From a virus (lineage: Duplodnaviria; Caudoviricetes), in the IMG/VR virus record IMGVR_UViG_2643221950_000002, positions 56,138 to 120,137 of that record: a DNA stretch of 64,000 nucleotides; one strand, given 5' to 3'. The notes below the pieces were generated by a model. The model was not told the DNA's origin, searched no databases, and saw only the letters and a list, made by a program, of their open reading frames with translations. Position numbers and translations under genes: made by a program. Positions 5,902 through 43,900 of this stretch are shown here, piece after piece. The stretch's first letter is position 1; each line of letters starts with the position of its first letter.

Positions 5902-5936
5902 ATTTTCTCCTTTTTTAAAGGCACCTTTACAGAACC

Positions 5937-6407
5937 TTATTTAATTTGATTTAAATGGGATACCCCTTCTTCAATACTCATTCTTAAAACAATTCTCACC
6001 ATCTCCTCCTGAAAACCCGTTTCATCTTTTTTAGATGAGAGATTAATAAGATTTTTCATGTCATTTAAATTGAGGTTAGGCAAAATATCTTTGGTGAAGT
6101 GTTCTTTTGCTTTTTCGATATTTTCTTTTTCATTTTTTGCTTCTCTGATTGAGTTTAGACTTACAACATTTGTTTTTTGCACTTCTTCTTGAACATCTTC
6201 GATTTCTTGTTTCGTTAATTCTGATTCGATTGGTTGGGGTGTAGGATCAGTAATAAAGGCTTCGACTAGTTCAGCTTCACCATTTTTGATTAGTTCCAAT
6301 GCTTCTGATTTTTTTATTGGAAAACTTCTCATTTGAGCCCAGCTGTATCTGTAGTATCTGTTACCTTTTTGTTTAATTAACATCATCTTTACCCTCTCCA
6401 GTCTCAC
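5937..6407 (-). CDS. Hypothetical phage protein
   Basis: 156-aa ORF; start probably at MMLIKQ. Confidence 0.7.
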   Translation of the reverse strand: MRLERVKMMLIKQKGNRYYRYSWAQMRSFPIKKSEALELIKNGEAELVEAFITDPTPQPIESELTKQEIEDVQEEVQKTNVVSLNSIREAKNEKENIEKAKEHFTKDILPNLNLNDMKNLINLSSKKDETGFQEEMVRIVLRMSIEEGVSHLNQIK

Positions 6408-29655: not shown

Positions 29656-30432
29656 TTGAGCAAACAAACAGTAATCCATGAAGTTGGAAAAATCACTGTT
29701 CGCAGAATTAGCGATAAGAAAGTTATCGGTAGCTCTGTGACACAAATGACTCAGTTCACACAACAAGTTCAGCAGGACTTTTTAAAGGGTGGCTGGGGCA
29801 ATAGAGACTTATACGTAATTAACTCAAGCAAAGAGGTTTCAGGTAACGTCAGAAACGCATTCTTTGATCTTGATTTCATGGCAATGCAACAAGGAGTTAA
29901 AATTGAAAATGAGGCCATTTCTGTATGGGAAGATGAAAATTTAACTGTCTCTGAAACTAATACCGTTAAATTAAGCTATATTCCGATTTCTGAAGTTACT
30001 CTTACAAATGAAGACGGCGAACATTTGAATGTCTCAACAACTTCTACTGAAGTTGCAGTCCCTGAGCAATTTGCTAAAAAAGAAGCTGTAATCACAGTGT
30101 TCTATCAAATTGAAGTAGATGCTGAAACTGTGGAAATCAGTGGTGAAAAATTCTCTGAGAACTATGAATTTGAAATCCATACAATTGAGTACGATCCTAA
30201 GACATCTAAAGTTTACAGTGATCTATATATTCAATTACCTAAAGTCAATTTCTCTGGAGAAGCTGATATTTCACTGGAAGCAGGTCAAGCTTATACTCCA
30301 GAAATCGGATACCGAGCTTTGGCGGATGAAAATGGAAAAATCGGTAAGTTTTCACGTGTGAAAAGAAATGCTGATGGATCTAAAGGTATCGTAAAAGACG
30401 ATCAAACAACTCCTCCAGTAGACGGAGAATAA
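29656..30432 (+). CDS. yomU: Major tail tube protein
   Basis: 258 aa; AGGAGG RBS; followed by a terminator. Confidence 0.65.
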   Translation: MSKQTVIHEVGKITVRRISDKKVIGSSVTQMTQFTQQVQQDFLKGGWGNRDLYVINSSKEVSGNVRNAFFDLDFMAMQQGVKIENEAISVWEDENLTVSETNTVKLSYIPISEVTLTNEDGEHLNVSTTSTEVAVPEQFAKKEAVITVFYQIEVDAETVEISGEKFSENYEFEIHTIEYDPKTSKVYSDLYIQLPKVNFSGEADISLEAGQAYTPEIGYRALADENGKIGKFSRVKRNADGSKGIVKDDQTTPPVDGE

Positions 30433-30450
30433 GTAGATTTTTGATTAACT

Positions 30451-30476
30451 GAGGAGGTCTCCCCTCCTCTTTTTAT
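30451..30476 (+). terminator. Intrinsic terminator
   Basis: GAGGAGG-tctcc-CCTCCTC followed by TTTTT. Confidence 0.7.
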
Positions 30477-30482
30477 TAAGGA

Positions 30483-30848
30483 GTGATTATTATAGCAGAA
30501 GATACAGCTCCTATTGTAGTAATTCCTGATCGTACATCATTTGTTTTTCATGAGAAGTCAGTCTCCCCTTCTGACGGTGAATCATTAGAAGTTAAACACT
30601 ACCAAAAATTAGCCATCAGCATCACTGGGACATCTACTTCAAGAAAAATTTCGTTTGTGGGATTGACGAATGATGATCAGGAAATTGAATTAGGAGGTAC
30701 TCAGTTAAGTGATTACCGAATAGCAACTGGAACAGAAGGAATTAACGAGGCTTGGGAATTCCCGATTTCCCCTTTCAAAAAAGTATTTATTAAATTAGAA
30801 GATGTGACTGATGGAGATGTCTCTGTGTTTGGGGAGGCTTCGACATAA
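30483..30848 (+). CDS. yomS: YomS-like virion protein
   Basis: 121 aa; synteny. Confidence 0.55.
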   Translation: MIIIAEDTAPIVVIPDRTSFVFHEKSVSPSDGESLEVKHYQKLAISITGTSTSRKISFVGLTNDDQEIELGGTQLSDYRIATGTEGINEAWEFPISPFKKVFIKLEDVTDGDVSVFGEAST

Positions 30849-31930
30849 TGCTTGATTCATTAGTAAGAGGGTTGTACAAAAGGCTAGAGAAGCAAATTGC
30901 TAACCTCAAAGACCTCTTTTTAACCAGTGAAGATTCCATGAAGCGTGATGTTGAAATCTTCAAAAGTGATAATGATTCATTTAAGTTGGAAATTAAAAGT
31001 GACTTAGAAACTCATAAGCATGACACTAAAAACCCTCATGCTGTCACAAAAGAGCAAGTTGGACTTGGTGATGTATTGAACATCGAACAAGCCAGCAAGA
31101 CAGAGTTTAATAAACATCAAAACGACTCTGATATCCATGTTGATCAAGATCAAAAAGAACAATGGAATAAAAAAGAAACCATTGAAGGTTCTCAAGAGAA
31201 AGCTGATTTGGCTTTAGTAAATTCTAAAGAATACACAGATGAGCATGAACTGAAAACAAACTTACATACTCAGCCAGGTGAGAAAGACAAATGGAACGGT
31301 TATGAAAGTTTGATAGACATGTTAGCGACAACTTTGGATGCTGCACAAAAATTCAAGTTGACTCAAGATGACGGGAAAGCTCAAAATCTTGCAAACGGAA
31401 CTGATGTATTGACTCTCCCCCCTGGAGTTTACACAGGTCAAAGTTTAACTAATGCCCCTTCTGCAACAGATCCCTTCCTCTTCTTAATCAATTCTAAGGA
31501 CAACTCCAATAAGACTATCTTGGCAATCTCATTGAAAAATAATGAAACATGGCTTTTCACGAGGCTACAAAATGTAAATTCAACTTGGAACAAGCTTGTA
31601 TCCTCTAATGACCTTAATGTGGTTTGGGTTAATACTACTTTAGTAGTCGGGACTACAAACCCGCAATACCCACTAAGACACAGATACATTCCTGTTTCTA
31701 AAACTTTAGAGATACAGGGAACATTCACCGCTCCGCTCGGTGCAACAATTGCCAAGTTATCTTATTTCCCTGTTCAAAACATTGATTTTACAGGTGTTAC
31801 TGTAGGTTCTTATGGGCAAGCACGAATGACACTAACGACAACAGGAGACTTAATCTATTCTGGTTTGTTTTCTAAGGATGATAGCAAAGTTGAAAGAGTG
31901 TCCTTAAATGAAACTATACCACTATCATAA
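30848..31930 (+). CDS. yomR: YomR/XkdV-like fibre or baseplate protein
   Basis: NPHAVTKEQVGLGDV fibre repeat; 360 aa. Confidence 0.7.
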   Translation: MLDSLVRGLYKRLEKQIANLKDLFLTSEDSMKRDVEIFKSDNDSFKLEIKSDLETHKHDTKNPHAVTKEQVGLGDVLNIEQASKTEFNKHQNDSDIHVDQDQKEQWNKKETIEGSQEKADLALVNSKEYTDEHELKTNLHTQPGEKDKWNGYESLIDMLATTLDAAQKFKLTQDDGKAQNLANGTDVLTLPPGVYTGQSLTNAPSATDPFLFLINSKDNSNKTILAISLKNNETWLFTRLQNVNSTWNKLVSSNDLNVVWVNTTLVVGTTNPQYPLRHRYIPVSKTLEIQGTFTAPLGATIAKLSYFPVQNIDFTGVTVGSYGQARMTLTTTGDLIYSGLFSKDDSKVERVSLNETIPLS

Positions 31931-31944
31931 AGAGGGTCACATCT

Positions 31945-32217
31945 ATGAAAACAATATTTTACTATGATGAAAACTTTATTTACTTAAGACAATCTGATTA
32001 CTTTGAAGGAGAAGTTTTGCCAGAAATGAGCACAGATATCGCACCTCCCCAATCACTATATTTAGGTAAATTTTATCCCGAAGAAAAGACATGGAAAGAA
32101 TCAGCTACTCAAGAATACATGGATTCTTTTAAAGTCGAACCTGAGCCATCTGAAATAAGCATGGTTAAACAACAGTTATCTGAACTTTACTATTTTATTG
32201 CGATGGGAGGAATTTAG
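31945..32217 (+). CDS. Fibre assembly protein (YomQ-like)
   Basis: STDIAPP...WKESATQEY motif. Confidence 0.6.
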   Translation: MKTIFYYDENFIYLRQSDYFEGEVLPEMSTDIAPPQSLYLGKFYPEEKTWKESATQEYMDSFKVEPEPSEISMVKQQLSELYYFIAMGGI

Positions 32218-32367
32218 ATGGCAATCGATTGGTATAAAGCAATCAAAGGATTTTACGATGATGGATTGTGGACTAAAGAGATGGTGTATAACACAGTTGC
32301 TGTTGGAAGAATTACGCCTGAACAATATGAACAAATTACTGGGGAGCAGTATACTCCACCACAATAA
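32218..32367 (+). CDS. yomP: XkdX-family protein
   Basis: Not in the track: MAIDWYKAIKGFYDDGLWTKEMVYNTVAVGRITPEQYEQITGEQYTPPQ. Confidence 0.88.
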   Translation: MAIDWYKAIKGFYDDGLWTKEMVYNTVAVGRITPEQYEQITGEQYTPPQ

Positions 32368-32401
32368 AATAAGAATTTTATTGAAAAAAGGAGGATTGCC
32401 A

Positions 32402-32584
32402 TTGAGACTTTTTGATGTATCTGAGGACATTTTACTTTTAAAGGGATTCTGGAAAGAGTCCTTTTGCGGAAAGGTAAGATGGCTTTTCTTTTTGTATCCT
32501 ATGTGTCTATATACAGCAATAATTTTAAAACTCGCTATAACTTTATATTCAATAAAACATAAAATGTTTTTCAAAAAACGCTAA
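32402..32584 (+). CDS. 60-aa membrane protein (moron-like)
   Basis: AAGGAGG RBS and TTG start; one TM; followed by terminator AACACCTC...GAGGTGTT-TTT. Confidence 0.55.
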   Translation: MRLFDVSEDILLLKGFWKESFCGKVRWLFFLYPMCLYTAIILKLAITLYSIKHKMFFKKR

Positions 32585-32632
32585 CACCTCTCCCCTATTT
32601 GAGGTGTTTTTATTTTAATCATAAGGAGAGAT

Positions 32633-33115
32633 ATGATGACAACACAAAAATTAACGCTAGATCATATTAAGGATGGGAATAAAAAGTACGATGAGAAAGT
32701 CAAAGTGCAGTTAGATGATAAGTTCCATGTTCACATCTACCCCAACTTTGATCCAGTTAAGATTACACAAATGATTAAAATGGCTCTAGAAGATGTAGCT
32801 GAAATTGAGTCGAATAAAAAGATTAAACACAAGCTTAATTTCGTTGATCTTTTAAATATTTATACAATCCTCACCTTCAGTGATGTCGCTAATATACCAC
32901 AAGGCATCACTTCTAAAGTTAACTTAATGATTGAATTGGTTAAGTCCCCATACTATAAAATAATCAACGATTCTTTTCCAAAGGAAAGCTTCGAGAGTAT
33001 CGATGAAAAATTACGTTCTATGACAGAAGGTATGATTGCGACTCAAGAAGCACTTGTTGACAAAGCGAACGAAGAAATATTGAAAAAAGTTGAAAAACTA
33101 ACTGCTGAAGCATAA
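32633..33115 (+). CDS. yomO: YomO-like protein
   Basis: 160 aa; synteny. Confidence 0.55.
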   Translation: MMTTQKLTLDHIKDGNKKYDEKVKVQLDDKFHVHIYPNFDPVKITQMIKMALEDVAEIESNKKIKHKLNFVDLLNIYTILTFSDVANIPQGITSKVNLMIELVKSPYYKIINDSFPKESFESIDEKLRSMTEGMIATQEALVDKANEEILKKVEKLTAEA

Positions 33116-33537
33116 TGGCCAAGAATCATAAAGAATTAGCCGTTATGCTTGAAAAAGCAGCTTTAAAAGCCTTGCAGTCTGGCAGTAATACAAAAGAGCT
33201 CTTAGTCAAAACAGGACAAGAGCAAGTTCAAACAGTGGTATATGATTCATATAGTCCAGTGGAATATAACCGAACTGGTGAGTTAAAGGCATCATTTGTT
33301 GTTGCGAATGAATCAAATGGTATTTCGTTAGATAACACAAGAACAGATGAGGGACGAGATGTTGCGACTATTGTTGAGACCGGTGAAGGGTATCAATTCC
33401 CTGACGAATATGGTTATGGCTATGGTGAGCCTCGTCCTTTTATGAGCAACACTGCTGAAAAGCTCAAACACAGTGGTGAATTAGTGGAAGCTGCTATGAA
33501 AGATGTTCGCAAGGCTGGTTATAAGACAATCAAATAG
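33115..33537 (+). CDS. yomN: YomN-like neck/tail component
   Basis: YNRTGEL...PRPFM (HK97 gp10-like pattern). Confidence 0.6.
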   Translation: MAKNHKELAVMLEKAALKALQSGSNTKELLVKTGQEQVQTVVYDSYSPVEYNRTGELKASFVVANESNGISLDNTRTDEGRDVATIVETGEGYQFPDEYGYGYGEPRPFMSNTAEKLKHSGELVEAAMKDVRKAGYKTIK

Positions 33538-33556
33538 CCTGGCGGTGAATTTAATA

Positions 33557-34558
33557 ATGAGCAAAGAAATCGAACAAAACATGCTGCGTAAAAGAGCGCA
33601 AAAGCTACCTGAAGTCACTGATGATATGTGGTCGCAAGTTGATCAGGAACATCAAGACCTGGTTTCAGAATTTCTGGATGCCAACTCGTTCAGAGACAAA
33701 ACTAAAAAACAGTACCATTCTACACTTCGTCAATTTTTCTGGTGGGTGCACACATCATTAAACGGAAAGAAACTATACAAGATCACTAAAAGAGATTTTA
33801 TACGATATCAGAGCTTCTTGAAAAATCGTGGAATGTCTTCAAGTGGCATTGCTCTAAAAAAAGCTTCAGTATCTTCCCTCAACAATTATCTTGAAAATGT
33901 AGTTGCGGAAGATGATCCAAACTACAAAACATTTCGAAACTTCACTCGTGGTCTCCCTGCTATACCTAAAACGGTGACTTATGAAAAAGTTAAAGTGACA
34001 TATGATGATTACAAATTAATGATGGACACACTAGAAGAAGACGAAAACTATCTTGGGATGGCATGGCTGGCCACTGCGTTTAATGTTGGGGGTCGTAGAG
34101 CTGAGCTAGTCCAATTTAAAACAGAGCTATTGGATTATCCTATTAATGAAGATCAATCGTACGTTATGAGTCATAAAGTTTTTGGTAAAGGTAAAGGCGA
34201 AGGAAAAGTACTGGAATACATGGTGAATTTAGAGGCTATAAAATACATGAAGTTATGGCATGAGAAGCGTGGCTATGACCATGAGTATATTTTTACAACG
34301 CAATACGGCGGAGAACCTAAGCAGATTTCAGAGTCCTGGGCGGATTATTTTTGTTCAGATGTTCTGTCAGATATTCTTGGCAGACGTATCAACCCCCACC
34401 TATTCAAAGCCTCTTGCATTACTTATCTTCTCGAAGTTAAAAAAATCAAGTTGGAATTGGTTAGTAAATACATCGCTCATCATGAAGATGTATCAACTAC
34501 AATCAAGCATTACGACTTAAGAAACTTTGAGGAAGAAAAGAATCAAATCTTCGCTTGA
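33557..34558 (+). CDS. yomM: Tyrosine recombinase YomM
   Basis: 333 aa from ATG 33557; GGRRAEL (R), GKG (K), PHLFK (HxxK), HH..TTIKHY (Y). Confidence 0.88.
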   Translation: MSKEIEQNMLRKRAQKLPEVTDDMWSQVDQEHQDLVSEFLDANSFRDKTKKQYHSTLRQFFWWVHTSLNGKKLYKITKRDFIRYQSFLKNRGMSSSGIALKKASVSSLNNYLENVVAEDDPNYKTFRNFTRGLPAIPKTVTYEKVKVTYDDYKLMMDTLEEDENYLGMAWLATAFNVGGRRAELVQFKTELLDYPINEDQSYVMSHKVFGKGKGEGKVLEYMVNLEAIKYMKLWHEKRGYDHEYIFTTQYGGEPKQISESWADYFCSDVLSDILGRRINPHLFKASCITYLLEVKKIKLELVSKYIAHHEDVSTTIKHYDLRNFEEEKNQIFA

Positions 34559-34852
34559 AATCCCTCTTTTATTCAGAATCAAAATCCTTCTTTTGAGGGA
34601 TTTTGCTTATGGTTAAAAATTGCAATGTCTTACGAGAGCCAATTATTATTAAATATATATTTTTAAATTTCTTACTCCGTTTCGTTCAATCGTTATCATT
34701 ACTTAAGATTTGTGTTCCACTTCTGTATGTTAATTGGACATTATTCTTTCTTAATATCAGCTGTTTAAAATTGTTAATTTTTTCATGATCTTGTGTTATC
34801 ATTAGAGTTGATAAAATTGAAATGAATAAACGTTCGAGGTGGATTAGATAAG

Positions 34853-35443
34853 ATGAGTGCAGTTTCAGAGCCAGTATTGGAATTGAAGGTAAAAAAAGAA
34901 CGAGATATGACAATGTATTTTGCAATGCGTGCAGTTGTTGCATTTTGTTTATTTGCAGGGTATTGTTATTCAGTAAAAAAAGATATTGATTATGTTCAAT
35001 TTTTCATTACTACACTATTATTGTTTGCTCCATTTGCATTGGATTACTATCCTCGTCAAAATGACGATAAAGCGGAAATAATTTTACGGAAATGGGGTAT
35101 GCTAATACCAAGCGGTGCAATTATAGGGGTTCTGTTATTGGGGCTTTTTAATGGAGATTCAAACTATTGGTCAAGTAATACTGCAATTTGGTTAAAGGTG
35201 ATTTGTATTGGCGCTGGATTTTTAGTGGCAATACTTGCTTATGTTGACTACAATAATTACAATCGAAGAAGCCAATTTACTCAGATTATGAAACAACACG
35301 CTGTTGAATATATTGAAGAATCGAATGCTGAATCTGCTGAAGCGCGCTTCAAAAGAAATGAGGCTATTAAAAAGGAAGGCCTTAAACGAGTTGTAATTGA
35401 AAGCGGGAAGAAAAGAAAAAAGAAAAAGCCTAATAAGATTTAG
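34853..35443 (+). CDS. Four-TM membrane protein with basic tail
   Basis: 196 aa; hydrophobic segments. Confidence 0.75.
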   Translation: MSAVSEPVLELKVKKERDMTMYFAMRAVVAFCLFAGYCYSVKKDIDYVQFFITTLLLFAPFALDYYPRQNDDKAEIILRKWGMLIPSGAIIGVLLLGLFNGDSNYWSSNTAIWLKVICIGAGFLVAILAYVDYNNYNRRSQFTQIMKQHAVEYIEESNAESAEARFKRNEAIKKEGLKRVVIESGKKRKKKKPNKI

Positions 35444-35465
35444 TAGTTAACTTGGAGGAAGCTAA

Positions 35466-35906
35466 ATGGATTACTTAGTTTTATTACTGATTTTTGTGGG
35501 ATTAATGTATATCACTACCTCATATGCTGCATATCGAGAAATTCGTGAGAAAAATTTAAAAGTGGCATTTAATTGGTACAATGTTTTTTTCTTTTTGATC
35601 ACCCCAGTAAGTGTTAGTATTATTCACTTGAAAATGGCATATCGCTTTTATAGAGAAGGACGAAAAAAAGAAGCGAGATTACTTTTCGCTTTAGCTACTT
35701 TTAAAATTTCTTCAGGCATAGCGATTTATTTAGAGTTCATGGTTCACTCAACCATAGTGGATGCTGTTTATGCAAAAAACCAGAAAAAGATGGCGGTAGC
35801 CAAAGAAGCGAGAAAGGTTTCTAAAGAAACGCTTAAATGGGGTAATTTAAAAGAATCTATAAAAAATCCTTTAGATTATCTTGATGCGGTTTTTAAACCA
35901 GCTTAA
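35466..35906 (+). CDS. Membrane protein
   Basis: 146 aa, GGAGG RBS, about 3 TM; terminator at 35939-35964. Confidence 0.75.
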   Translation: MDYLVLLLIFVGLMYITTSYAAYREIREKNLKVAFNWYNVFFFLITPVSVSIIHLKMAYRFYREGRKKEARLLFALATFKISSGIAIYLEFMVHSTIVDAVYAKNQKKMAVAKEARKVSKETLKWGNLKESIKNPLDYLDAVFKPA

Positions 35907-35974
35907 TCATGAAGAATAAAATATTACTGAGTTCCTCTAACCTCACTTAACGTGGGGTTTTTCTATGCCATCAT

Positions 35975-36001
35975 TTAACAATTCTCCCCTTCTGCCGATA
36001 A
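35975..36001 (+). promoter_or_regulatory. SigD-type promoter
   Basis: TTAA-15bp-GCCGATAA versus consensus TAAA-N15-GCCGATAT. Confidence 0.65.
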
Positions 36002-36021
36002 TTCTGTTGAGGTGGTAAAGG

Positions 36022-36558
36022 ATGATAGGCAAGAAGAAACAAAAAAGAATAGACAATTATAAAATAAAAAAATTTAATCACAAGAACTTTAATAAACACA
36101 CCTTAAAGAGCAGCTTGATAGCAATGAATAAACGTGTATTTGTTGCGTATATAAAATTCCATTTCCCTCTTAACGGGCAGAAAGCAAGAAAGTATCAAGA
36201 TAAATATAAGGTCTTGCAATCTCTTGAGGAAGCTGTATTGATAAATGCTATTTCTAGAACAAAAGCTTTAGAAATAATATACGAAACAAAATATGTCATT
36301 CCATTTGTTGGGGCTTTAATTGCAGTGGTTGTTGTTCCAGCAATAATAGCCTTTGGAGATTCTTTTATAGTTGATTATCCTGTATATAAAAAAGAAATTA
36401 AGTTAGGAGCGGTTGTTGTCGCTTCGTTATGTGCAGTAGCTGTGTCAGTGTTCATTACACACAGCATAAAAAAAGATAAAAATGTTCTTGCTCTGCTTGT
36501 GTCCTTTCGAGAGTTGTTGGAACAGGCTTTAGCAGCAAAGAAGAACGATGAAAAGTGA
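36022..36558 (+). CDS. Two-TM protein, paralog A
   Basis: 178 aa; aligns by eye with 36679..37170. Confidence 0.8.
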   Translation: MIGKKKQKRIDNYKIKKFNHKNFNKHTLKSSLIAMNKRVFVAYIKFHFPLNGQKARKYQDKYKVLQSLEEAVLINAISRTKALEIIYETKYVIPFVGALIAVVVVPAIIAFGDSFIVDYPVYKKEIKLGAVVVASLCAVAVSVFITHSIKKDKNVLALLVSFRELLEQALAAKKNDEK

Positions 36559-36631
36559 CTTCTCGCCCCTCCTTTCTAATTAAAGCAATGCTTATTATGG
36601 AAATTCCAATATAATATAATGAGGATTAAAC

Positions 36632-36658
36632 TCAAAATCGCCCCCTTTTTTCCGATAT
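36632..36658 (+). promoter_or_regulatory. SigD-type promoter
   Basis: TCAA-15bp-TCCGATAT. Confidence 0.65.
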
Positions 36659-36678
36659 TATCCATGAGGTGATTTGGA

Positions 36679-37170
36679 ATGAATTGTGAAAATTGTATGG
36701 GAAAATTCGATAGGGAAACAATGGAAGATGCTTTGTTGAATTGGAACGAGAAGGATTTTATAAAATATTTGAATACACATTTTTCAATTGAAGGTAAATC
36801 GGAAAGTCCAAGAGAAAAAGTAAATGTTCTAAGATCGCTTGATGAAGTAGTCTTAGAAATAGCTTCAGCAAGGATTGATGGTCTTGAAAAAATCTATGAT
36901 GATAAACATATTATATTCTTTATTGGCGCTTTGATAGCAGCTGCTACACCTGCTGTAACTGCTATATTCTTGCCTTTCACTTCGGGAGAAGTTCATCCGA
37001 GTGCCTCAGGAGAAGTCTATCCGAGGATAGCTGCATCCTTCTTTACTCTATGTTCACTAATGTTTTTCAAGACATATTTAGGTAGGGATAAAAATATACT
37101 CGCTGTCCTTGTATCGTTTAGAAAATTACTTGAACAAGCCATGGATAAAAAGAGAGATGAAAGTGATTAA
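36679..37170 (+). CDS. Two-TM protein, paralog B
   Basis: DKNILAVLVSFRKLLEQA versus DKNVLALLVSFRELLEQA in paralog A. Confidence 0.8.
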   Translation: MNCENCMGKFDRETMEDALLNWNEKDFIKYLNTHFSIEGKSESPREKVNVLRSLDEVVLEIASARIDGLEKIYDDKHIIFFIGALIAAATPAVTAIFLPFTSGEVHPSASGEVYPRIAASFFTLCSLMFFKTYLGRDKNILAVLVSFRKLLEQAMDKKRDESD

Positions 37171-37192
37171 CCTCTCCCCTGTTCTCATATTT

Positions 37193-37508
37193 GGGCTCAC
37201 CTCAAACTTATGTCAAATGGTTAGCTTCATGTCTGTCAATTTGACAGGTATTAAAGGGGCTAGTTTTAACCGACTCCCTATCTGTATGATAGGAACACTA
37301 TGCCGGTCACCACTATCATTTAAAATGATGGTATTCAGCTGCCTAAGTTGAAATTAGGGACGTATATAAATCCACTCTCATTTAAAATGATAGTGAGAAA
37401 GTTCACTTTCCGAATACTGTCGTCTTAAACTACTGTATTATATTTAGAGTGAAATAGATTCTGATGTCATTTAAAACGACACCAGCTTCACGATTAAGAA
37501 TGAGTATC
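37193..37508. repeat. Array of divergent ~21-27 bp imperfect palindromes related to a segment of the Bro-N gene
   Basis: TCATTTAAAA(T/C)GA three times plus related palindromes; 37377-37394 is the exact reverse complement of 39351-39368. Confidence 0.8.
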
Positions 37509-37578
37509 CCCTGCCCTGTTCCTCTAGATTGGGTTATCATGGTATACTATAGGAAAAATATACTGGTGGTGGGAATGA

Positions 37579-38208
37579 GTGGGTTGGCTTATTTTTGGAT
37601 TTTTAGCGTTTTGCGGGGTAGGCATTTTCCTAGTCATGAAATCAATAGATCATCAAAATAACAGAAAAAAAGCACTCGATAGCATTGATGACGAAAATTA
37701 TTCCCGAGCTTATACTTCAACTGACGGATCAACCAAAATATTCTTCGATGAAACAAGTGAAAAAGTAAAAATTGGCTACATTTCAATTGACAACTTTAAA
37801 GACAGTAATGTTACTCCCGTCATAAAAACGTATGACTTCAAAGATATAGTTGATGTTGAGGTTAATATAGATGGCAGTACTGTATCAAAAGTGTCTAAAG
37901 GAGATTCGATTTTAGGGGCAACTGTAGGTGGAGCAATCGGAGGCGGAATTGGCGCCATAATTGGAAGTAATAGTGCTTCTAGTAAAACAAGCGATTACAT
38001 CAATTATATTCATTTAAGAATTTGTTTTGAAGACTACGATACACCCTTCTATGATGTTGCTTTTTACAGTGGAGTTGTTTATGATCCTGAATTACCAACA
38101 TCGATTAAAAAATCATCGCCTGAAGCTCAGAAAGCTTTAAAGGAAGCAGAAACTTGGTTTAGATATTTCAAATTAGCTATACGAAACGCAGAAAAAGTCG
38201 CTCATTAA
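37579..38208 (+). CDS. Membrane-anchored protein with glycine zipper
   Basis: N-terminal TM; GATVGGAIGGGIGAIIG. Confidence 0.75.
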   Translation: MGWLIFGFLAFCGVGIFLVMKSIDHQNNRKKALDSIDDENYSRAYTSTDGSTKIFFDETSEKVKIGYISIDNFKDSNVTPVIKTYDFKDIVDVEVNIDGSTVSKVSKGDSILGATVGGAIGGGIGAIIGSNSASSKTSDYINYIHLRICFEDYDTPFYDVAFYSGVVYDPELPTSIKKSSPEAQKALKEAETWFRYFKLAIRNAEKVAH

Positions 38209-38219
38209 TTTTGGGCGAC

Positions 38220-38468
38220 TTAATTTTTTAAGCGGCTTTCTACTTCGAATAGCCTTTTATTTAGCAGGACTGTTTTGTTGTCTACATTTTGAATCTGTTT
38301 TAAATGTGCAGTGATATCTTTCGGTTGGTTTTCTTCCAATCTGTCTAGTTTAACGTTGATTTGATTGAATTCTTTATTCGTATCTTCTCTGAAATCCACA
38401 ATTTCAGATTTAATTGTCTTCAACTCATTTGAAAGTTCATGGATAGCTTGTAAAATTTTGTCCTCCAT
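38220..38468 (-). CDS. Small coiled-coil protein
   Basis: 82 aa; GAGGAGGG RBS; shared hairpin 38195-38221. Confidence 0.7.
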   Translation of the reverse strand: MEDKILQAIHELSNELKTIKSEIVDFREDTNKEFNQINVKLDRLEENQPKDITAHLKQIQNVDNKTVLLNKRLFEVESRLKN

Positions 38469-38516
38469 TTTGTATCACCCCTCCTCTAATTATAACATCA
38501 CTTGCAATACTTTTGC

Positions 38517-38786
38517 TTAGGACTCTTCTTTAACTTCCTCCAAAACAACCACATCTTGAAGATCGCACTCTAAATACTCACATATTTTAATTATTGAGCT
38601 CAATGACACAGGTTCATTTCTAGACAACTTTGAAATAGTGGCTGATGATACATCCACATTATTCCTAAGATCCACCTTCTTTTTCCTTTTTTTCACTAAT
38701 GTAATCTCTAAAGGCATGTAATTTGGTCTTAACTTCAATTTTCCACCCCGTATTCTTTTTTGTGTTCTTATTATACACCAATACAC
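38517..38786 (-). CDS. Cro/C1-type HTH regulator (start probably downstream of 38786)
   Basis: VSSATISKLSRNEPVSLSSIIKICEYLECDLQDVV; divergent from the Bro operon. Confidence 0.8.
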   Translation of the reverse strand: MYWCIIRTQKRIRGGKLKLRPNYMPLEITLVKKRKKKVDLRNNVDVSSATISKLSRNEPVSLSSIIKICEYLECDLQDVVVLEEVKEES

Positions 38787-38968
38787 AAAAAATGTTTAAT
38801 TATAAAACAAAATTTATAAAAAAGTTGTTGACTTGTCTGTTTTTATAATGGTAACCTTTGTTTAGAAACAAAACAAAACAGTCTCTAAACGAAACAAAGA
38901 GGTGATAAAAATAAACTTAAAGAAGCTCAAAATTACCAAGGTATTGTTATTAGTGAGGAGGAAGAGCC

Positions 38969-39205
38969 ATGTCACCTAACAATGTTACTGGGACAATATT
39001 GTTAGAAGTTTCAAAAAATGTTGATTCTAACAAGGAAGAGTTAGCTATATTGGAGTCCTATTACTCTATTTCAGAAGAAAGAGTCCAACTAGACGAACTG
39101 TTGCTTGTGCACAAGAACGGTAAAAAACTAGGAACTGTTAAGGTACATAACGTGAGTATTTCTTGGAATAATTTTAACGGGGGAATGAAAAATGAATCAA
39201 TTTGA
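38969..39205 (+). CDS. Hypothetical protein
   Basis: 78 aa; GAGGAGG RBS. Confidence 0.7.
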   Translation: MSPNNVTGTILLEVSKNVDSNKEELAILESYYSISEERVQLDELLLVHKNGKKLGTVKVHNVSISWNNFNGGMKNESI

Positions 39206-39890
39206 AAGAGCTTTTGATTATAAAGGGAATAATGTAAGAACGTTTATGAGAGATGAAGAAACTTGGTTTGTAGCAAGGGATGTATGTAACATATTAGAAA
39301 TTGGCAATCCGAGTCAAGCGCTGAGCCGTCTTGATGATGATGAAAAGAATACTATCATTTTAAATGAGGGTATTGGGAATCCAAATAAAACAATCGTTAA
39401 TGAACCAGGTCTCTACACATTAATCTTGAGCAGTCGCAAACCTGAAGCGAAACAATTCAAACGTTGGGTGACTCATGACGTACTTCCTGTAATTCGCAAA
39501 AGCGGGATGTATATCTCAGAGGATGCAACCAGAGAGCAGAAACTATTTAACTACGATTTGTTAGAAGAGACTTTTAGAAATTGTGGAATTGAAAATCTGC
39601 ATGAACTTTATAAGGAATGTGTGGAATATTACAAAGAAAATAAGATTCGATTAGATTATAAAAGAAGCTCTAAGCATAGACGAAATGATAAGAAAAAATC
39701 ACTTTCTGATTCTCGAATTGAAATAATGAAAAAGATTGAAAACGTACTTCAAGAACGAGAATTGAATTATAAGCAATCTCTCAATTTTGCCTTTGTATCA
39801 GTTGTATCTGAATTATTAAAGATTATTGCATTGGACATTAAGTCAATAAAACACAACAAAACTAGAGGAAAGCTGGCTCAAGCGAGATGA
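39192..39890 (+). CDS. Bro-N domain antirepressor-like protein
   Basis: WFVARDVCNILE...LDDDEK...VNEPGLYTLILSSRKPEAKQFKRWVTHDVLPVIRKSG. Confidence 0.92.
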   Translation: MNQFERAFDYKGNNVRTFMRDEETWFVARDVCNILEIGNPSQALSRLDDDEKNTIILNEGIGNPNKTIVNEPGLYTLILSSRKPEAKQFKRWVTHDVLPVIRKSGMYISEDATREQKLFNYDLLEETFRNCGIENLHELYKECVEYYKENKIRLDYKRSSKHRRNDKKKSLSDSRIEIMKKIENVLQERELNYKQSLNFAFVSVVSELLKIIALDIKSIKHNKTRGKLAQAR

Positions 39891-40099
39891 CCAAGTTTGT
39901 TAATCCCATCATATTAGATGTAGTTGCAATGGTTGATCAAACTTCTTCATCTCAAGAGCTTGCTGATATTTCTACTGAGCGTCTCTTAGCAAAATTTAAC
40001 GATATACTTGAAATTGTTCTGGTGAATAGACATGGAGAGACTCTCAAACTAGAGGCATATGAGTTGAACTATGAAGTGAACGAATCCGAAGAAGTATAA
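39887..40099 (+). CDS. Hypothetical protein
   Basis: 70 aa, ATGA-coupled; terminator at 40107-40154. Confidence 0.65.
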   Translation: MTKFVNPIILDVVAMVDQTSSSQELADISTERLLAKFNDILEIVLVNRHGETLKLEAYELNYEVNESEEV

Positions 40100-40164
40100 A
40101 GAATATAAAAACAGCTGTGCTGAATGTGTTTTCCTACAAACGGCACAGCTTTTTCAATAAGGCT

Positions 40165-40857
40165 TCATTTAGAAATTGAAGTTAATATCCCGTCTTCAAA
40201 GTACAAGTATTTATTTCCTTTATAAACCCACTGTTTTAAGGTTCTATTTTTAGTGACATTTGTATTAACTTTTGTTGGTCTACCCCACCCGTTCAAAAGC
40301 ACATCATCTTCCGTCATTCCAATAGATACGTCTTGTGGATTCAATGATCTATCCTCTATTTGTTTCTTCCTTTCGTATTCATCAATCTCATTCTTATCTC
40401 TTGCTGCGTTTTGGTTTTTAAGATTCTCTAAAGATTTAATTCTATCCAAATTATCTTTCTTGATTTGCTTGTATTTTAAATCAGTATGAGCATTTGAATG
40501 TTTAACCTTATCTAACATGGCTTCAATGTATGCATATGAATCATAGTTTTCAACATTTGTTTTCTTTTCATTTAACTCTTTATTTTTTTTGAAAGCAGAA
40601 GCTATAAAATAATAGTCTTTTTGAAAAACTTCCTTTAATTCAGCAGTTTTGCTAATAACCTCATCAAATTTTTCTTCTTTTATAAGCCTTATAAGCTTTC
40701 TATCTTCTTCAGTTAATTTGTGCCTATCATTAGCGGAACTCGTTTCTTCATTAGCCGTTACAGTTTTAGTATTAGAAGATTCTTCTGTTACCTTGTTCTG
40801 ACCACATCCAGACAAGATAACAACAGTTCCCAATATAAATAATATGGATTTCTTCAT
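40165..40857 (-). CDS. Lipoprotein in the yomJ position (candidate superinfection exclusion)
   Basis: Signal peptide with lipobox LSGC; C-terminal IGMT..V...WG.P....QWVY domain; antisense to the late operon. Confidence 0.75.
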   Translation of the reverse strand: MKKSILFILGTVVILSGCGQNKVTEESSNTKTVTANEETSSANDRHKLTEEDRKLIRLIKEEKFDEVISKTAELKEVFQKDYYFIASAFKKNKELNEKKTNVENYDSYAYIEAMLDKVKHSNAHTDLKYKQIKKDNLDRIKSLENLKNQNAARDKNEIDEYERKKQIEDRSLNPQDVSIGMTEDDVLLNGWGRPTKVNTNVTKNRTLKQWVYKGNKYLYFEDGILTSISK

Positions 40858-40955
40858 GGCGTTCCCCCATTTACCTTATGTTAAAAGTATAGCTGTAATA
40901 AACTGCTTAATCAAACACAATTTCCCGTATGCACTGAAAGGATGTGAGCAATTAA

Positions 40956-43900
40956 TTGAGCGAACAACTAAAAATATTTGTTACTCCCGTAGCAGATACC
41001 TCTTCACAGACAACTGAAAATCTAAACAGGCAAATTAAGCAGTTACAATCCAAACTGAATGCCATTGAGTTAAAAACAAACATTGACACCAACACCCTAA
41101 AGACTCTAAAAGAGTTCACTTCTGCATTTGACAAATATCAGTCCAATTTAAAAAATTACAACGACACAGTTAAAGAAACCACAAGAATCACCCAACATCT
41201 TAATGGCAATGTTACAAAGGTAACTCAGGAACATAAACGCAGTGGAGAAATTATCCAGCGAACAACTGAGAAAATTAAAGAGCAAACAACCGAAACTAAT
41301 AAATTAGCAAGTGCTCAACAAAAACTCGGCCAAGTTGTTAAAAATACCGAGAGAATGAATGCTCAAGGTAAAGTTACTGGTTCTACACAGAAAAATCGAG
41401 ATGGTTACAAGGATTTTACATATAATCTTGATGAAAAAGGAAACGTGAAAAACTCTACTGTTTCCACTAACTTCGATAAAAAAAGAAAAGATATTGATGC
41501 GTTAAACGCCTCTCTTCAAAGACTTCGTGAGCAAGGTATTTTATCCGATACCACCCTCTCTTCCCTTGGTCGTAAAATCAACCTTGCTCAATCCTCAGCC
41601 CAAATTGATTCCCTCAAGCAAAAAATTCGTACATTAGATGACAAGTCGTCTGCTGTTGCAAAGAATAACGAGCTAAAGCAAACAATTGCACTATATCAAA
41701 GACAAGCTCAGCTTAATGCGAACAACTTAACGAGCAAGTATGGAAATAACCTTAGCAACAGTAGCAAAACTCAGATTCAAGAGTACCTTCTTGCTGTTAC
41801 TCAACTCACCTCTAAAACCCCTGCATTATCCTCAAAGATAAAAGACCTCAATATGCAGTTTAGAGAGCTTTCGTCCTCTATTCAAAACTCAACTCAAAGA
41901 GCAACAACATTTGGACAACAATTGGGTGATGCTTTTAGTCGTATTCCAGCATATTTGCTGTCAGGTTCTATATTTTATGGAGCTATTACAGCTCTAAAAA
42001 ATATAACTCAGCAAGCTGTTGAAATTGACACTCTAATGACAAATATCCGAAGAGTCATGGATTTGCCAGATTACAAATTCAATGAGCTCCTTCAAACTTC
42101 ATTAGATTTAAGTAATGAATTATCAAACAAAGTATCAGATGTTCTAGAAATTACGGGAAGTTTTGGTCGAATGGGTTTTCAGGCAGATGAACTTTCCGAT
42201 TTAACCAAAACAGCACAAGTTTTGCAGAATATTTCAGATCTAACTGCATCAGATACTGTAAACACTCTTACTGCAGCCATGCTCAATTTCAACGTATCAG
42301 CAAAAGATTCAATTTCTATCGCTGATAAACTTAATGAAGTTGACAACAATTTTGCAATTTCCACGCTCGACATGGCTAATTCGATAAGAAAAGCTGGAAG
42401 TACCGCTTCCACCTTCGGTGTTGAATTGAATGACTTAATCGGCTATACAGCAGCCATTGGAAGCACAACACGTGAAAGTGGAAATATAGTCGGTAACTCA
42501 TTAAAGACCATTTTTGCGAGAATTGGTAATAATAGAAGCTCTATTAAAGCCTTAGATCAAATCGGCATCTCTGTGCAAACGGCAGCTGGTGAAGCAAAAA
42601 CTTCAAGTCAGTTAATTGGCGAAGTAGCAGAAAAATGGGACAGCTTGTCTGATGCCCAAAAGCAAAACACATCGATTGGTGTTGCGGGTATTTATCAGTT
42701 ATCTAGATTTAACGCCCTATTGAATAACTACTCTATCTATCAAGACGCAGCTAACACTTCTGCAAACTCAATGGGTTCGGCATGGAAAGAACAAGAAAAG
42801 TATGCTGATAGCTTACAGGCACGGATAAACCGCCTTCAAAATACGGTTACTGAATTCGCTGTTGCCGCCAGTGATGCCTTCATTTCAGATGGTCTTATCG
42901 CTTCTACAGAAGCTCTAGGAAATTTCATGGGATTGACTACTGGCTTAATTAAAAATATCGGTTTCCTTGCTCCTGCTTTCGCAACAGCTACAGTGGCCAC
43001 TATACTGTTTTCTAATGCTTTAAGAACAACGGCTATGCAAAGTGGCGCTCAAATCATTAACACACTTAAAGCACTCCCTCTTACATTGCAAACATACTCT
43101 ACTGGTGCAGGGATAGCAGCAACGACAAATAGAGTTCTTTCCCTTTCTTTTGCCACTTTAGGAAAAGCAGCAAAATCTGCTGGAATGTTTTTAGCTGGAG
43201 CCGCATTGCCTATTGCAGGATTTGCTGCATTGGGTTTTGTTGTTGAGAAATTGGTTAGCGCTTATTCTGATGCAAAAAAAGCTCAAGAGGATTTCGAGAC
43301 TGCACAAAGCACCTCTATCGAAGCTTGGACTACGAATAAAGAAGCTACTCAAGGGTTAATCGATAAGTATAAAGAACTTCGTAAAGCTAAAGATGACAAC
43401 CAACTAACGCCTGAAAAAGAACAGGAATACTTATCAGTTTCACAACAGTTAGCAGCAACATTCCCTAACCTTGTTGAAGGGTATGATGCTCAAGGTAATG
43501 CCATCATTAAGAACAACGAAGCCTTAAAAGAGGCAATTAAATATACTGAAGAGATGGCAAATTTCAATAAACGTGATCTGAAAGATAATGCAGCCTCTAA
43601 TTTTGAAGATCAAATTAAAAAGCTTAAAGATTTGAACAAAGAAATGGAAGCTAATAAAGCCTTAGCTGATAACTACAAAGAAGGTTCAAGTTGGATTACA
43701 AGAATCTTCGAAAACCCTTTCGCAAATAATGATGATTATGTAAAAGAAGGATACAAATACGAACGTGAAGCCTTGCGTGCGAAACAATCAATAGTAAGCG
43801 CAAATGCTGAAATTCAGGCTTCAGTATTAGATGTAATCAGTGCCTTTAATTCAATTGATATTAACCCAAACATCAAACAATCAATCACCGATATTTTAAA

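Follow-up and report, generated by a model that had tools for sequence, protein, structure and literature searches.

A bank of palindromic variants of a Bro-N gene element in an SPbeta-like prophage

The window studied here (the whole stretch of DNA analysed, 64,000 nucleotides) contains a 325-bp non-coding insert that is a bank of dyad-symmetric elements of about 21-27 bp. Six or more of these are variants of a single element located within Bro-N genes, where it is kept, across many phyla, as symmetry and not as sequence. Few domains are as common in phages and large DNA viruses as Bro-N, and little is known of what it binds. The reading that we tentatively favor, at a probability of roughly one in three, is that dimers of Bro-N would bind the palindromes, and that the array would be a bank of sites of several types placed upstream of a promoter. 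Phages may thus have an as yet undescribed means of sensing or blunting one another's antirepressors.

Organization of the array and its neighborhood

The main features of the region are:

33503-34558, plus strand: YomM-like, tyrosine-recombinase-like gene, 83% identical to SPbeta YomM; neighbor of the array, not its partner
37164-37184, plus strand: left direct repeat bracketing the insert (repeat search family D3), overlapping the stop codon of the upstream gene
37182-37506, no strand assigned: array, a 325-bp non-coding insert in an SPbeta-like Bacillus prophage
37487-37587, plus strand: conserved tail, with candidate promoter TGGTATACT (37540-37548) and the ribosome site of the downstream gene
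37501-37521, plus strand: right direct repeat bracketing the insert (family D3)
37579-38208, plus strand: downstream gene for a small protein of 209 aa that is hydrophobic over a stretch near its N terminus; member of phrog_27819 (E 1.1e-33), of unknown function
38517-38786, minus strand: Cro/C1-type HTH gene (PF13443, E 1.8e-10), divergent from the Bro operon
39192-39890, plus strand: Bro-N antirepressor-family gene (Pfam PF02498; phrog_130, 'anti-repressor Ant')
39348-39374, plus strand: coding palindrome, in the codons for residues 53-61, the predicted first strand and turn of the wing hairpin

The array is a presence/absence insert, a point that the first-pass annotation of this DNA had not made. 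In L157, from Bacillus pumilus and the closest named relative, window positions 36676-37181 are joined straight onto 37507-38589 and the array is absent; it is also absent from sequencing run X2, where unrelated sequence extends as far as 37507. The two direct repeats that bracket the insert are 81% identical, and L157 has one hybrid copy of them. No ORFs were found in the array, whose units are separated by 5-30 bp.

The tail that follows the insert is 95-97% identical in L010, L011 and L157 despite differing neighbor genes. To judge by its sequence, TGGTATACT at 37540-37548 is a likely promoter next to the array. A consensus promoter scan returned only a minus-strand site, 37575-37546, pointing into the array. 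A terminator-like site lies at 38195-38221. The sole tblastn match of the 209-aa protein, at 30% identity, is to a gene of Geobacillus virus E3 with the depositor annotation 'putative immunity protein'. Neither this protein nor the neighboring 163-aa protein has relatives in the viral contigs, and tblastn found none for the 163-aa protein.

Palindromes are denser in the array than expected: eight score at least 5.5, against 1.80 +/- 1.32 (maximum 6) in 200 shuffles, and four score at least 7, against 0.34 (maximum 3) in 200 shuffles. Spacer and Bro gene share an uninterrupted match of up to 18 bases, where 300 shuffles gave a mean of 9.8 and a maximum of 15. Among the 555 palindromes of score at least 6 in the 120-kb record, only three array units and the Bro gene reach at least 18/21 bases to a Bro segment. 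A second palindrome-rich place, at genome position 48,850, is ordinary sequence in which no Bro-like units were found.

Units of the array

The units are numbered from left to right; for those listed here no strand is assigned.

37229-37251: unit 2, palindrome with core CTGTCAATTTGACAG, score 7
37255-37280: unit 3, decayed palindrome (score 3), GVVLTD type
37311-37336: unit 4, NTIILNEGI type, the window's own Bro allele
37340-37360: unit 5, KFNLG type
37373-37395: unit 6, in which 18 bases are the exact reverse complement of part of the window's own Bro segment
37413-37439: unit 7, NTVVLTDGI type
37461-37485: unit 8, resembling the alleles of L041 (DVISTD) and L011 (AGVVLND)

Nine palindromic units had been claimed in the first-pass annotation. 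Six are real (37229-37251, 37312-37332, 37340-37360, 37373-37395, 37413-37439 and 37461-37485), and a seventh, 37255-37280, is poor as a palindrome yet Bro-like. The remaining two, units 1 and 9 at 37193 (score 3.5) and 37486 (score 3), are not palindromes and match Bro alleles at 13/21 and 14/21 bases, as in the null. Two further palindromes, 37277-37293 and 37397-37410, had been overlooked; each scores 6 and neither is Bro-like. Units 1, 2 and 9 and these two extra palindromes match no intact Bro allele.

The proposal that the array is a library of Bro-segment variants is supported by comparison. Six of 11 tested sites agree with Bro alleles, foreign or own, at 16-20 of 21 bases, the foreign alleles occupying the very same codons in the Bro genes of other phages, and only 0-9 of 200 arm-permuted controls reach these scores. 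The segment matched consists of the codons directly after DEDEK in own and foreign Bro-N genes. The translations quoted for the units were reproduced, and the motif types GV.LTD and KFNLG, named in the annotation, do occur at that position in Bro genes. Also borne out are the exact 18-base reverse complement of 39351-39368 at 37377-37394, within unit 6, and the 22/24 match of 37312-37335, within unit 4, to 39351-39374.

The best allele matches are 19/21 to L021 for unit 3 (0/200 controls), 19/21 to L017 for unit 4 (3/200), 17/21 to L204 for unit 5 (9/200), 20/21 to L068 (TLISNDS) for unit 6 (0/200), 16/21 to L014 for unit 7 (4/200; its L010 copy, 18/21) and 18/21 to L041 for unit 8 (0/200), which also aligns to the L011 Bro gene. 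Unit 2 reaches 13/21, as in the null, and its surroundings (37228-37254) are 92.6% identical over 27 bases to L229 5456-5482, a Bro-like fragment in an Anoxybacillus prophage. Unit 4 is also present in the arrays of L010 and L011, where the window's Bro allele matches the copies at 20/21. Most units are in sense orientation relative to the best-matching Bro allele. In alignments, the likeness to Bro genes ends at the ends of the palindromes, and the flanks show none.

The palindrome within Bro-N genes

The gene at 39192-39890 is the only Bro-N gene in the 120-kb record; it scores 88.9 bits against PF02498 (cut-off 25.6; E 3.6e-25) and matches phrog_130 at E 3.5e-46. As the annotation had described, it carries the palindrome AATACTATCATTTTAAATGAGGGTATT at 39348-39374, translated NTIILNEGI. 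The center of this allele, T TTA AAT in frame, resembles a slippery heptamer; a frameshift was considered and dropped, since other alleles lack the heptamer and the site lies at the center of the stem.

Beyond what the annotation had noticed, the coding palindrome is general to the family: it was found in three independent sets of Bro-N genes that span several phyla. Among 56 distinct genes of the viral set, the bins centered at +4 to +21 hold 2, 5 and 5 scores of at least 8, and there are none elsewhere in 330 nt. For 65 new genes of the genome set, the bins +4 to +15 and +16 to +27 hold 15 and 9, and two other bins hold one each. The metagenome set has a palindrome at the position in 24 of 55 new genes and one elsewhere in 3 of 55. 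The protein sequence by itself does not account for the coding palindrome, whose score lies in the top 5% of synonymous-codon resamples for 25 of 50 genes (mean 6.58 versus 4.23).

In an AlphaFold2 (AF2) model (pLDDT 79.7), two helices are followed by a hairpin formed by residues 52-56 and 65-69. Among solved structures it comes closest to winged-helix-like DNA-binding domains (APSES PCG2 with DNA, Mbp1, Dachshund/Ski and DdrC), and by the model the codons of the palindrome would specify strand one of the beta-hairpin 'wing' in such a fold. Passages of PMC8096241 describe Bro-N as a DNA-binding domain. Between Bro orthologues of 83-92% identity, nearly all differences fall at residues 36-46 and 52-69, a hypervariable patch that corresponds in the model to the second helix, with its preceding loop, and the wing.

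The dyad centers on a single base in 65 of 65 cases. Pairing is 78-85% at the innermost three positions, dips at positions 8-9 and reaches 94-97% at positions 10-11. The symmetry looks like that of duplex DNA; in the innermost three positions an RNA loop could not pair. This bears directly on control at the RNA level, in which the dyads would be hairpins in transcripts and RNA from the array would pair, or compete for a factor, with the Bro mRNA hairpin of the same or other phages, an RNA immunity like that of P1 c4 or of P4 CI with seqA. On balance we regard this as unlikely. Several observations speak for it. Mismatches on the coding strand are more often G.T than A.C (36 versus 16), which leans to an RNA hairpin; both array strands fold better than shuffles (z -3.6 and -4.1); and over 18 bases the plus strand of unit 6 is exactly complementary to the phage's own Bro mRNA. 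No plus-strand terminator was found between the upstream gene and the array, and the minus-strand promoter-like site mentioned above faces the array. A Bro-like dyad upstream of a Bro gene in L164 and in L019 looks like an intrinsic terminator, and passages of PMC10111431 place the P4 immunity RNA and its targets inside a Bro-network gene. These points have to be set against the symmetry through the center and against the orientation of the units, most of which are in sense, so that a plus-strand array RNA would make a poorer antisense. Moreover, a cmscan of 30000-45000 against Rfam (E <= 1) placed no family on the array, C4 and isrK included, and gave only two unrelated weak hits, and the contigs of six phages that carry the coding palindrome contain neither another copy of their dyad nor a partner sequence nor an array.

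Distribution and variation of arrays

Among 38 SPbeta-like loci, the array is present in all 4 with a Bro gene and in none of the 34 without one. The link to yomM that the annotation had drawn does not hold: of 38 loci that have a YomM-like gene, 34 lack the array, and YomM was rejected as the enzyme of the array. The YomM-like gene of the window matches Cre in the PDB at E about 0.01, and YomM conservation stands at 83-96% whether or not a phage has an array. Megablast and blastn searches of GenBank phages with 36600-38300 found no relatives, and a metagenome scan yielded neither a close relative (at least 74%) nor another array of the SPbeta type. Independent banks with these unit types do lie beside Bro genes in Paenibacillus (L207) and Anoxybacillus (L229) prophages, a further point absent from the annotation. 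Very close relatives of the window, with genomes about 97% identical, have 0, 1 or several units and vary by deletion between units; units have been lost in runs X5 and X7, and the L011 array also varies by deletion between units. In L011 and L012 no unit is close to the phage's own Bro allele, and self-regulation therefore cannot be the general purpose of the array.

The units of L010 have palindrome scores of 8-12, a symmetry at least equal to that of the coding palindromes; its copies of units 5 and 8 are perfect palindromes (8+1+8 and 12+1+12). The insert is 92.8% identical between the window and L010, against 87-89% for the Bro and tail genes. Within this region, 17 of 162 positions differ in the units and 7 of 173 in the spacers and tail (Fisher p 0.03; 0.15 without unit 3).

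Such variation is what might be expected if the array had no function, the Bro palindromes being hot spots of template switching or illegitimate recombination and the array their debris, kept symmetric by arm-to-arm correction. Units of L229 and L012 still keep flanking Bro codons, DDDEK upstream and GIGNP downstream, and are gene fragments for that reason. The deletions between units, the lack of any visible consequence where the array is absent (L157 and X2) and the excess of differences in the units, which fits a mutational hot spot, point the same way. We nevertheless doubt this explanation. The units are 85-95% like living alleles and their flanks have no likeness, whereas decaying fragments should keep recognizable flanks; the L010 units, free of coding constraint, are at least as symmetric as coding ones; and compact banks with shared unit types occur in three genera, with differing order and spacers. 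The insert, moreover, is better conserved than its neighboring genes, and debris would leave unexplained a coding palindrome kept across phyla beyond codon needs.

The annotation had also suggested donor cassettes; on this reading the units would be silent copies that are copied into the Bro gene and change its wing. The wing is indeed part of the hypervariable patch, and the array alleles of one phage are the expressed alleles of another, as with the window's allele and unit 4 of L010 and L011, or unit 8 and the L011 allele. The present comparisons disfavor the idea, which we judge highly improbable. No flanking homology is shared between units and gene, and the palindrome is present in six phages without arrays. 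Among the differences listed for relatives with 0, 1 or several units, X2, X5 and X7 included, none lies inside the Bro palindrome 39348-39374. The wing patch that differs among orthologues comprises 17-18 residues and extends beyond the palindrome; it is common to other Bro sequences over 57 bases, so that ordinary recombination in conserved flanks explains the allele swaps. There is no dedicated enzyme, YomM not being associated with the array, and a crossover at the center would delete or invert the intervening 2 kb.

Possible role of the palindromes

The dyad symmetry is of operator size, and the units might be read by another protein, such as the neighboring HTH repressor (38517-38786), the Cre-like YomM homolog (33503-34558) or a host factor. 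We consider this very unlikely: the arms vary from unit to unit, so that one protein could not read all of them; inspection of the HTH/Bro promoter region (38787-38968) by eye found no unit-like site; and YomM is conserved regardless of the array. An operator of a CI-type repressor was rejected, as the dyad is present only once in six other phages.

The reading as sites for Bro-N dimers draws support from the matches of units to foreign alleles, from the position-specific and duplex-like palindrome kept beyond the needs of the protein, from the modelled resemblance to DNA-binding folds with a hypervariable wing, from an array that tracks the Bro gene and from the banks in Paenibacillus and Anoxybacillus. 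Under this reading each dyad would be bound by a Bro-N dimer of corresponding type, and the specificity-bearing wing and its site would be one piece of DNA, travelling together. The single self-site of most phages would serve autoregulation. Here a set of sites would have accumulated directly before the likely promoter of a gene for a small membrane protein, covering the phage's own type (units 4 and 6) and the types of other phages (units 3, 5, 7 and 8). Bro from the prophage itself, or from a co-resident or superinfecting phage, may then bind the bank, and either the neighboring gene would be switched, making the bank a sensor, or Bro would be soaked up by a decoy; a choice between these is a guess. 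Against a site bank of this kind, the array is dispensable, L157 and X2 being without it and X5 and X7 having lost units. We know of no demonstrated precedent for a wing that reads the very DNA encoding it in the Bro-N domain. It is conceivable, if doubtful, that the operator of Bro-N proteins lies inside the codons of their own DNA-reading wing, the two forming an indivisible, exchangeable specificity cassette, and that 'tripwire' banks of many types in some prophages detect rival or co-resident antirepressors and switch on the neighboring membrane-protein gene, with exclusion or co-induction as the result.

The dyad keeps to a single codon position in different phyla, beyond the needs of the protein, and so gives the whole Bro-N family a concrete candidate target. 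If one and the same DNA serves as wing and site, a regulator and its operator would stay linked in a new way as both diversify, and non-coding banks of foreign types would be a new device of phages for sensing or decoying one another. Even if the array is debris, the conserved coding palindrome still needs explaining, and it affects both the recombination of Bro genes and the typing of their alleles.

Comparison with known systems

No description of the Bro palindrome bank was found in print, the papers searched yielding neither a palindrome inside Bro genes nor comparable arrays. Several known systems share single properties with it. Like the array, integron attC sites form a row of imperfect palindromes with structure more conserved than sequence, near a tyrosine recombinase and in a cassette-like region. 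However, attC sites are 55-140 bp long, have conserved R boxes and each follow a gene cassette, whereas the units are 21-27 bp, stand back to back without genes or ORFs between them and do not track the recombinase (34 of 38 YomM-like loci lack the array). The units are not a CRISPR array, as they differ from one another; all that they repeat is a 13-base core with three occurrences, spaced by 62 and 89. Nor are they dispersed palindromes of the REP/BIME kind, since Bro-like palindromes are confined to the array and the Bro gene in the 120-kb record. A shufflon or invertase system is not indicated: there are no alternative Bro ends by the units, and the contigs of four related runs show deletions and no inversion joints. 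The hr regions of baculoviruses are, as generally described, arrays of imperfect palindromes of about 30 bp near bro genes, and in this they resemble the present array; they are near-identical copies that act as enhancers and origins, and to our knowledge are not copies of a bro coding segment.

Sites of a binding protein within its own coding sequence are known from parS inside spo0J and from the lambda ori iterons inside gene O, and HK022 Roi reportedly recognizes part of its own gene. In these cases the location inside the binder's gene keeps site and specificity together. They differ from the model proposed here in that, as far as is known, the site lies outside the codons of the DNA-reading element and there are no banks of heterologous sites. 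Roi was considered as a Bro-N precedent and set aside: a Bro-N query did not match it (best tblastn E 1.7, elsewhere than roi), and no palindrome of the gene scores above 6.

In P1 and P7 the c4 RNA (ImmI) controls ant, and short repeats in or beside the antirepressor gene set immunity specificity. Similarly, in P4, as described in parts of PMC10111431, the CI RNA acts with seqA and seqC in the Bro-network gene eta; as in the array, short repeats in or beside a gene set immunity specificity and vary among relatives. Both P4 CI and P1 c4 rely on complementary RNA sites whose position is not fixed in the Bro-N domain, in contrast to the base-centered dyads and the many-type array seen here, and no C4 or isrK antisense immunity RNA was detected in the cmscan of 30000-45000 (E <= 1). 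Finally, SPbeta-like phages have another repeated regulatory DNA element that is bound by a phage protein, SPBRE, which parts of PMC10516654 describe as the 15-bp operator of the master repressor MrpR at about ten early promoters. By that description SPBRE is one conserved motif, whereas the units are mutually different, form one cluster in the late region and occur only with the Bro module.

Genomic context

The window makes up the right half of a provirus record 120,137 bp long. We read it as an SPbeta-like prophage because its 351-aa ORF at 33503-34558 is 83% identical to SPbeta YomM and because the closest named relatives of the region around its Bro gene (a Bro-N, PF02498, antirepressor-family gene) are prophages of Bacillus pumilus (83%) and B. 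glycinifermentans (74%). A non-coding array (37182-37506), here also called a bank, lies within a 408-bp gap between a 163-aa ORF (36679-37170) and a 209-aa ORF (37579-38208).

Features downstream of the array
82-aa ORF
Cro/C1-type HTH gene, minus strand
78-aa ORF
39192-39890, plus strand, Bro-N gene, the only one of the record
70-aa ORF

The 163-aa ORF is a tandem paralogue of 36022-36558. The two small products contain hydrophobic stretches and have C-termini alike; neither matched a Pfam or PHROG family, and in the relatives L010 and L011 other genes replace this region. Positions 38787-38968, which separate the HTH gene from the Bro operon, include a promoter close to consensus (TTGACT ... 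TATAAT) together with repeats of GTTTAGAAAC / GTCTCTAAAC. These repeats do not resemble the array units and probably serve the HTH protein as operators. The 120-kb record (34% G+C) has 24 plus-strand and 5 minus-strand copies of a C-rich octamer, T[CA][TG]CCCC[TC], one form being TCTCCCCT; plus-strand sites are at window positions 35983, 36563, 36638, 37173 and 37505, with 19 more in the record. Copies are found where the small variable genes near the array meet one another, and also within the direct repeat bracketing the array. Some form arms of terminator hairpins. The octamer may be a module-boundary or late-transcription signal.

The YomM-like protein is 96% identical in L010 and L011, a conservation far above that of its neighbours. 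Its match to Cre recombinase is weak (E about 0.01) and covers the N-terminal half only, to the first catalytic arginine, and near the C-terminus it reads H-L-F-K at the expected HxxR box. For these reasons it may bind DNA without acting as a recombinase, as has been shown for MrpR of SPbeta.

Palindromes of the array and of the Bro gene

The array contains six imperfect palindromes (37229-51, 37312-32, 37340-60, 37373-95, 37413-39 and 37461-85), each having arms 9-12 bases long and no more than two mismatches; the palindrome score and unit borders are definitions specific to this analysis. A looser score raises the count in the 408-bp gap to 8 palindromes, where 200 shuffles gave 1.80 +/- 1.32 (maximum 6); strong palindromes number 4, where the shuffles gave 0.34. 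The first-pass annotation had listed nine palindromic units, and six of these stand, whereas 37193 and 37486 are not palindromes and 37255 is a poor one. The palindrome that it placed in the Bro coding sequence is present, spanning 27 bases (39348-39374) and translated NTIILNEGI; the centre reads, in frame, T TTA AAT, the form of a -1 slippery heptamer, which is missing from other alleles. Its two cross-matches also hold: read as their reverse complement, the 18 bases of 37377-37394 are identical to part of the Bro palindrome, and 37312-37335, in unit 4, agrees with that palindrome at 22 of 24 bases. The longest exact match between gap and Bro gene is 18 bases, with 9.8 expected and a maximum of 15 in shuffles. 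Throughout the 120-kb record, the only palindromes with at least 18/21 identity to a Bro segment are three array units and that of the Bro gene. That the units are sites of some other protein we consider very unlikely.

A position-fixed dyad in Bro-N genes

Among the 56 distinct Bro-N genes of the viral set, all palindromes scoring at least 8 within 330 nt of the domain are centred 4-21 nt past the K51 codon, where three bins hold 2, 5 and 5, with zero elsewhere. The genome set (65 further distinct genes), which includes GC-rich versions from Actinobacteria and Proteobacteria, gave 15 and 9 in the bins over +4 to +27 and one in each of two other bins, and the metagenome set (55 further genes) has a palindrome at that position in 24 and elsewhere in 3; these sets are redundant by descent, and gene counts do not equal independent events. 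Bro-N genes contain a conserved, position-fixed dyad element, its symmetry kept despite widely different sequences. Resampling of synonymous codons under a fixed protein sequence put the real score of 25 of 50 genes among the top 5% (mean 6.58 versus 4.23). We therefore attribute the symmetry to the DNA or RNA and not to the peptide.

Array units resemble Bro alleles of other phages

Versions of the segment just after DEDEK are termed alleles and named by translation. For the 42 bases surrounding this codon position, Bro-N genes drawn from viral contigs, species genomes and metagenomes supplied 170 distinct versions. The central 21 bases of each array site were then compared with the 169 foreign ones. 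In controls the arm positions of the same unit were permuted, with centre, composition and symmetry kept.

Best matches of array units to foreign Bro alleles (identical bases; locus and allele; controls reaching the match)
Unit 3: 19/21; L021 (GVVLTD); 0/200
Unit 4: 19/21; L017 (NTIILNEGI); 3/200
Unit 5: 17/21; L204 (KLNLG); 9/200
Unit 6: 20/21; L068 (TLISNDS); 0/200
Unit 7: 16/21; L014; 4/200
Unit 8: 18/21; L041; 0/200

The earlier suggestion that the array is a library of Bro-segment variants is supported for units 3-8, which resemble foreign alleles at that codon position (16-20/21). Sites 37204, 37240, 37285, 37403 and 37497 were null-like, with no match among the 169 alleles. Elsewhere in Bro genes the best match of any unit was at most 16/21 (13-15 for the window's units), and likeness stops at the palindrome ends in every aligned pair of unit and Bro gene. 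Unit 2 is 92.6% identical over 27 bases to a Bro-like fragment of an Anoxybacillus prophage. The units thus appear to be copies of Bro alleles; on these comparisons, non-coding banks contain dyad variants resembling the Bro alleles of other phages.

Duplex site or RNA hairpin

A symmetry profile was drawn from the 65 segments scoring at least 7, out of 115 in the viral and genome sets. The centre of each of the 65 dyads is a single base; in none does it fall between two bases. Counting outwards, the first three positions pair at 85, 83 and 78%; the figure drops to 55-63% for positions 8-9, rises to 97 and 94% for positions 10-11 and fades by position 14. Since the innermost bases of a hairpin loop are unable to pair, such a profile agrees better with a duplex site recognised by a dimer than with a stem-loop in RNA. 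Non-coding units follow this pattern too; those of L010, for example, include perfect 8+1+8 and 12+1+12 palindromes. Counted against the duplex reading are the coding-strand mismatches (36 G.T versus 16 A.C) and one Bro-like dyad, upstream of Bro in Geobacillus, that has a T run after it in the manner of a terminator. On either strand the array folds better than its shuffles, which is expected of any palindrome-rich stretch. We regard action of the dyads and array at the RNA level as unlikely.

The Bro-N protein

An AlphaFold2 model of residues 1-119 (28-row alignment, pLDDT 79.7) runs in the order of three strands, helices 28-35 and 40-45, a hairpin of strands 52-56 and 65-69, and two helices. 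Foldseek ranked first the N-domain of baculovirus Orf22 (E 7e-4), followed by the APSES domains of PCG2 (with DNA) and Mbp1, Ski/Dachshund and DdrC (E 0.03-0.1), which are known as winged-helix-like DNA binders whose helix and wing touch DNA. Five full-length orthologues (74-92% identical to the window's Bro; 88% mean column identity) vary almost only at residues 36-46 and 52-69. The GNPSQA helix motif is common to most of 16 distinct genes with an NTIILNEGI-like wing, the proteins being otherwise diverged; L010 Bro is a recombinant, with the GNPSQA helix and another wing. Since the allele patch that sets the window apart from L010 covers 17-18 residues and is common, over 57 bases, to the Anoxybacillus fragment, we infer that Bro alleles travel by ordinary recombination in conserved flanks.

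Distribution and turnover of arrays

The survey took in 38 viral loci that carry a YomM-like gene, each with flanks of up to 10 kb in both directions. A Bro-N gene is present in 4, representing three distinct phages (L130 and L139 are near-identical), and all 4 have at least three Bro-like dyads upstream of it; the remaining 34 have neither Bro-N gene nor array. Control DNA (661 kb) yielded 2 palindromes reaching 17/21. No second copy or array was found in the contigs of six other phages with strongly palindromic Bro alleles (G004, G006-G010), two of which are 54-56% complete. Banks are linked to Bro genes. In the Paenibacillus prophage L207, dyads of types seen in the array occupy the gap directly after the Bro gene, five by reading and two by the scan (18 and 19/21), and the Geobacillus-type loci L164 and L019 have one dyad directly upstream of Bro, 19/21 identical to another phage's allele. 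The Anoxybacillus prophage L229 retains a fragment still reading VDDDEKNTIILNEGIGNP, with the window's exact 27-base allele, followed by a unit-2-type dyad.

Several details of these loci were recorded. The L207 stretch (5900-6080, a Paenibacillus maysiensis contig) is a second, independent bank, its five dyads by eye of KGV..DTL, RFNLG, IISND and KFNLG types; it lies in an early operon, after a Bro-N/ANT gene that itself follows cI-like and cro-like genes. The dyads at L164:4908-4932 and L019:3908-3932 are terminator-like hairpins, ATGGGGTAAGTAAATTTTACCCCAT then TTTTT, some 50-75 bp ahead of the Bro ORF, and the genome supplying their 19/21 match is L189. At L229:5330-5480 (an Anoxybacillus sp. 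chromosome) two Bro gene fragments lie past a 118-aa Bro-N ORF: the first carries the window's allele with flanks DDDEK and GIGNP, and the second continues from its dyad into ...TLINESGLYSLIL. The left border of the first, CTGTAGATGA, is the same in an L012 array unit, so the L229 and L012 fragments are of common descent.

Banks turn over fast. In the B. pumilus locus L157, position 37181 is joined straight to 37507, and the array, bracketed by a 21-base direct repeat, is therefore a 325-bp presence/absence difference. Sequencing-run contigs matching the downstream 2.4 kb at about 97% vary in array content: X2 has no array, X7 retains unit 4 alone, and in X5 a deletion between the cores repeated in units 4 and 6 has removed 37310-37371. 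L011 carries a hybrid of units 6 and 8. The insert of L010 has 92.8% identity to that of the window, as against 87-89% for Bro and the tail genes, and the genes to either side of it are replaced. Differences fall at 17/162 positions in units, 3/72 in spacers and 4/101 in the tail (Fisher p 0.03; 0.15 without unit 3), an excess in units that is suggestive only. That the array is functionless debris of a recombination hot spot seems improbable to us. Among the listed differences of X2, X5 and X7 from the window, none lies inside the Bro palindrome, and we give very little credence to the units being donor cassettes.

Interpretation

We favour, at a probability of roughly 0.35, the reading that the dyad in the Bro-N gene is a candidate site of the Bro-N dimer itself. 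On that view the bank would gather sites for Bro proteins of several types, in front of a gene for a small membrane protein and beside a conserved promoter-like stretch (TGGTATACT, 37540-48), a putative promoter read from sequence. A literature search limited to the main texts of open-access papers found no description of such arrays or of a Bro coding palindrome. Wherever defining features could be tested, the array differs from each of the families that could absorb it.
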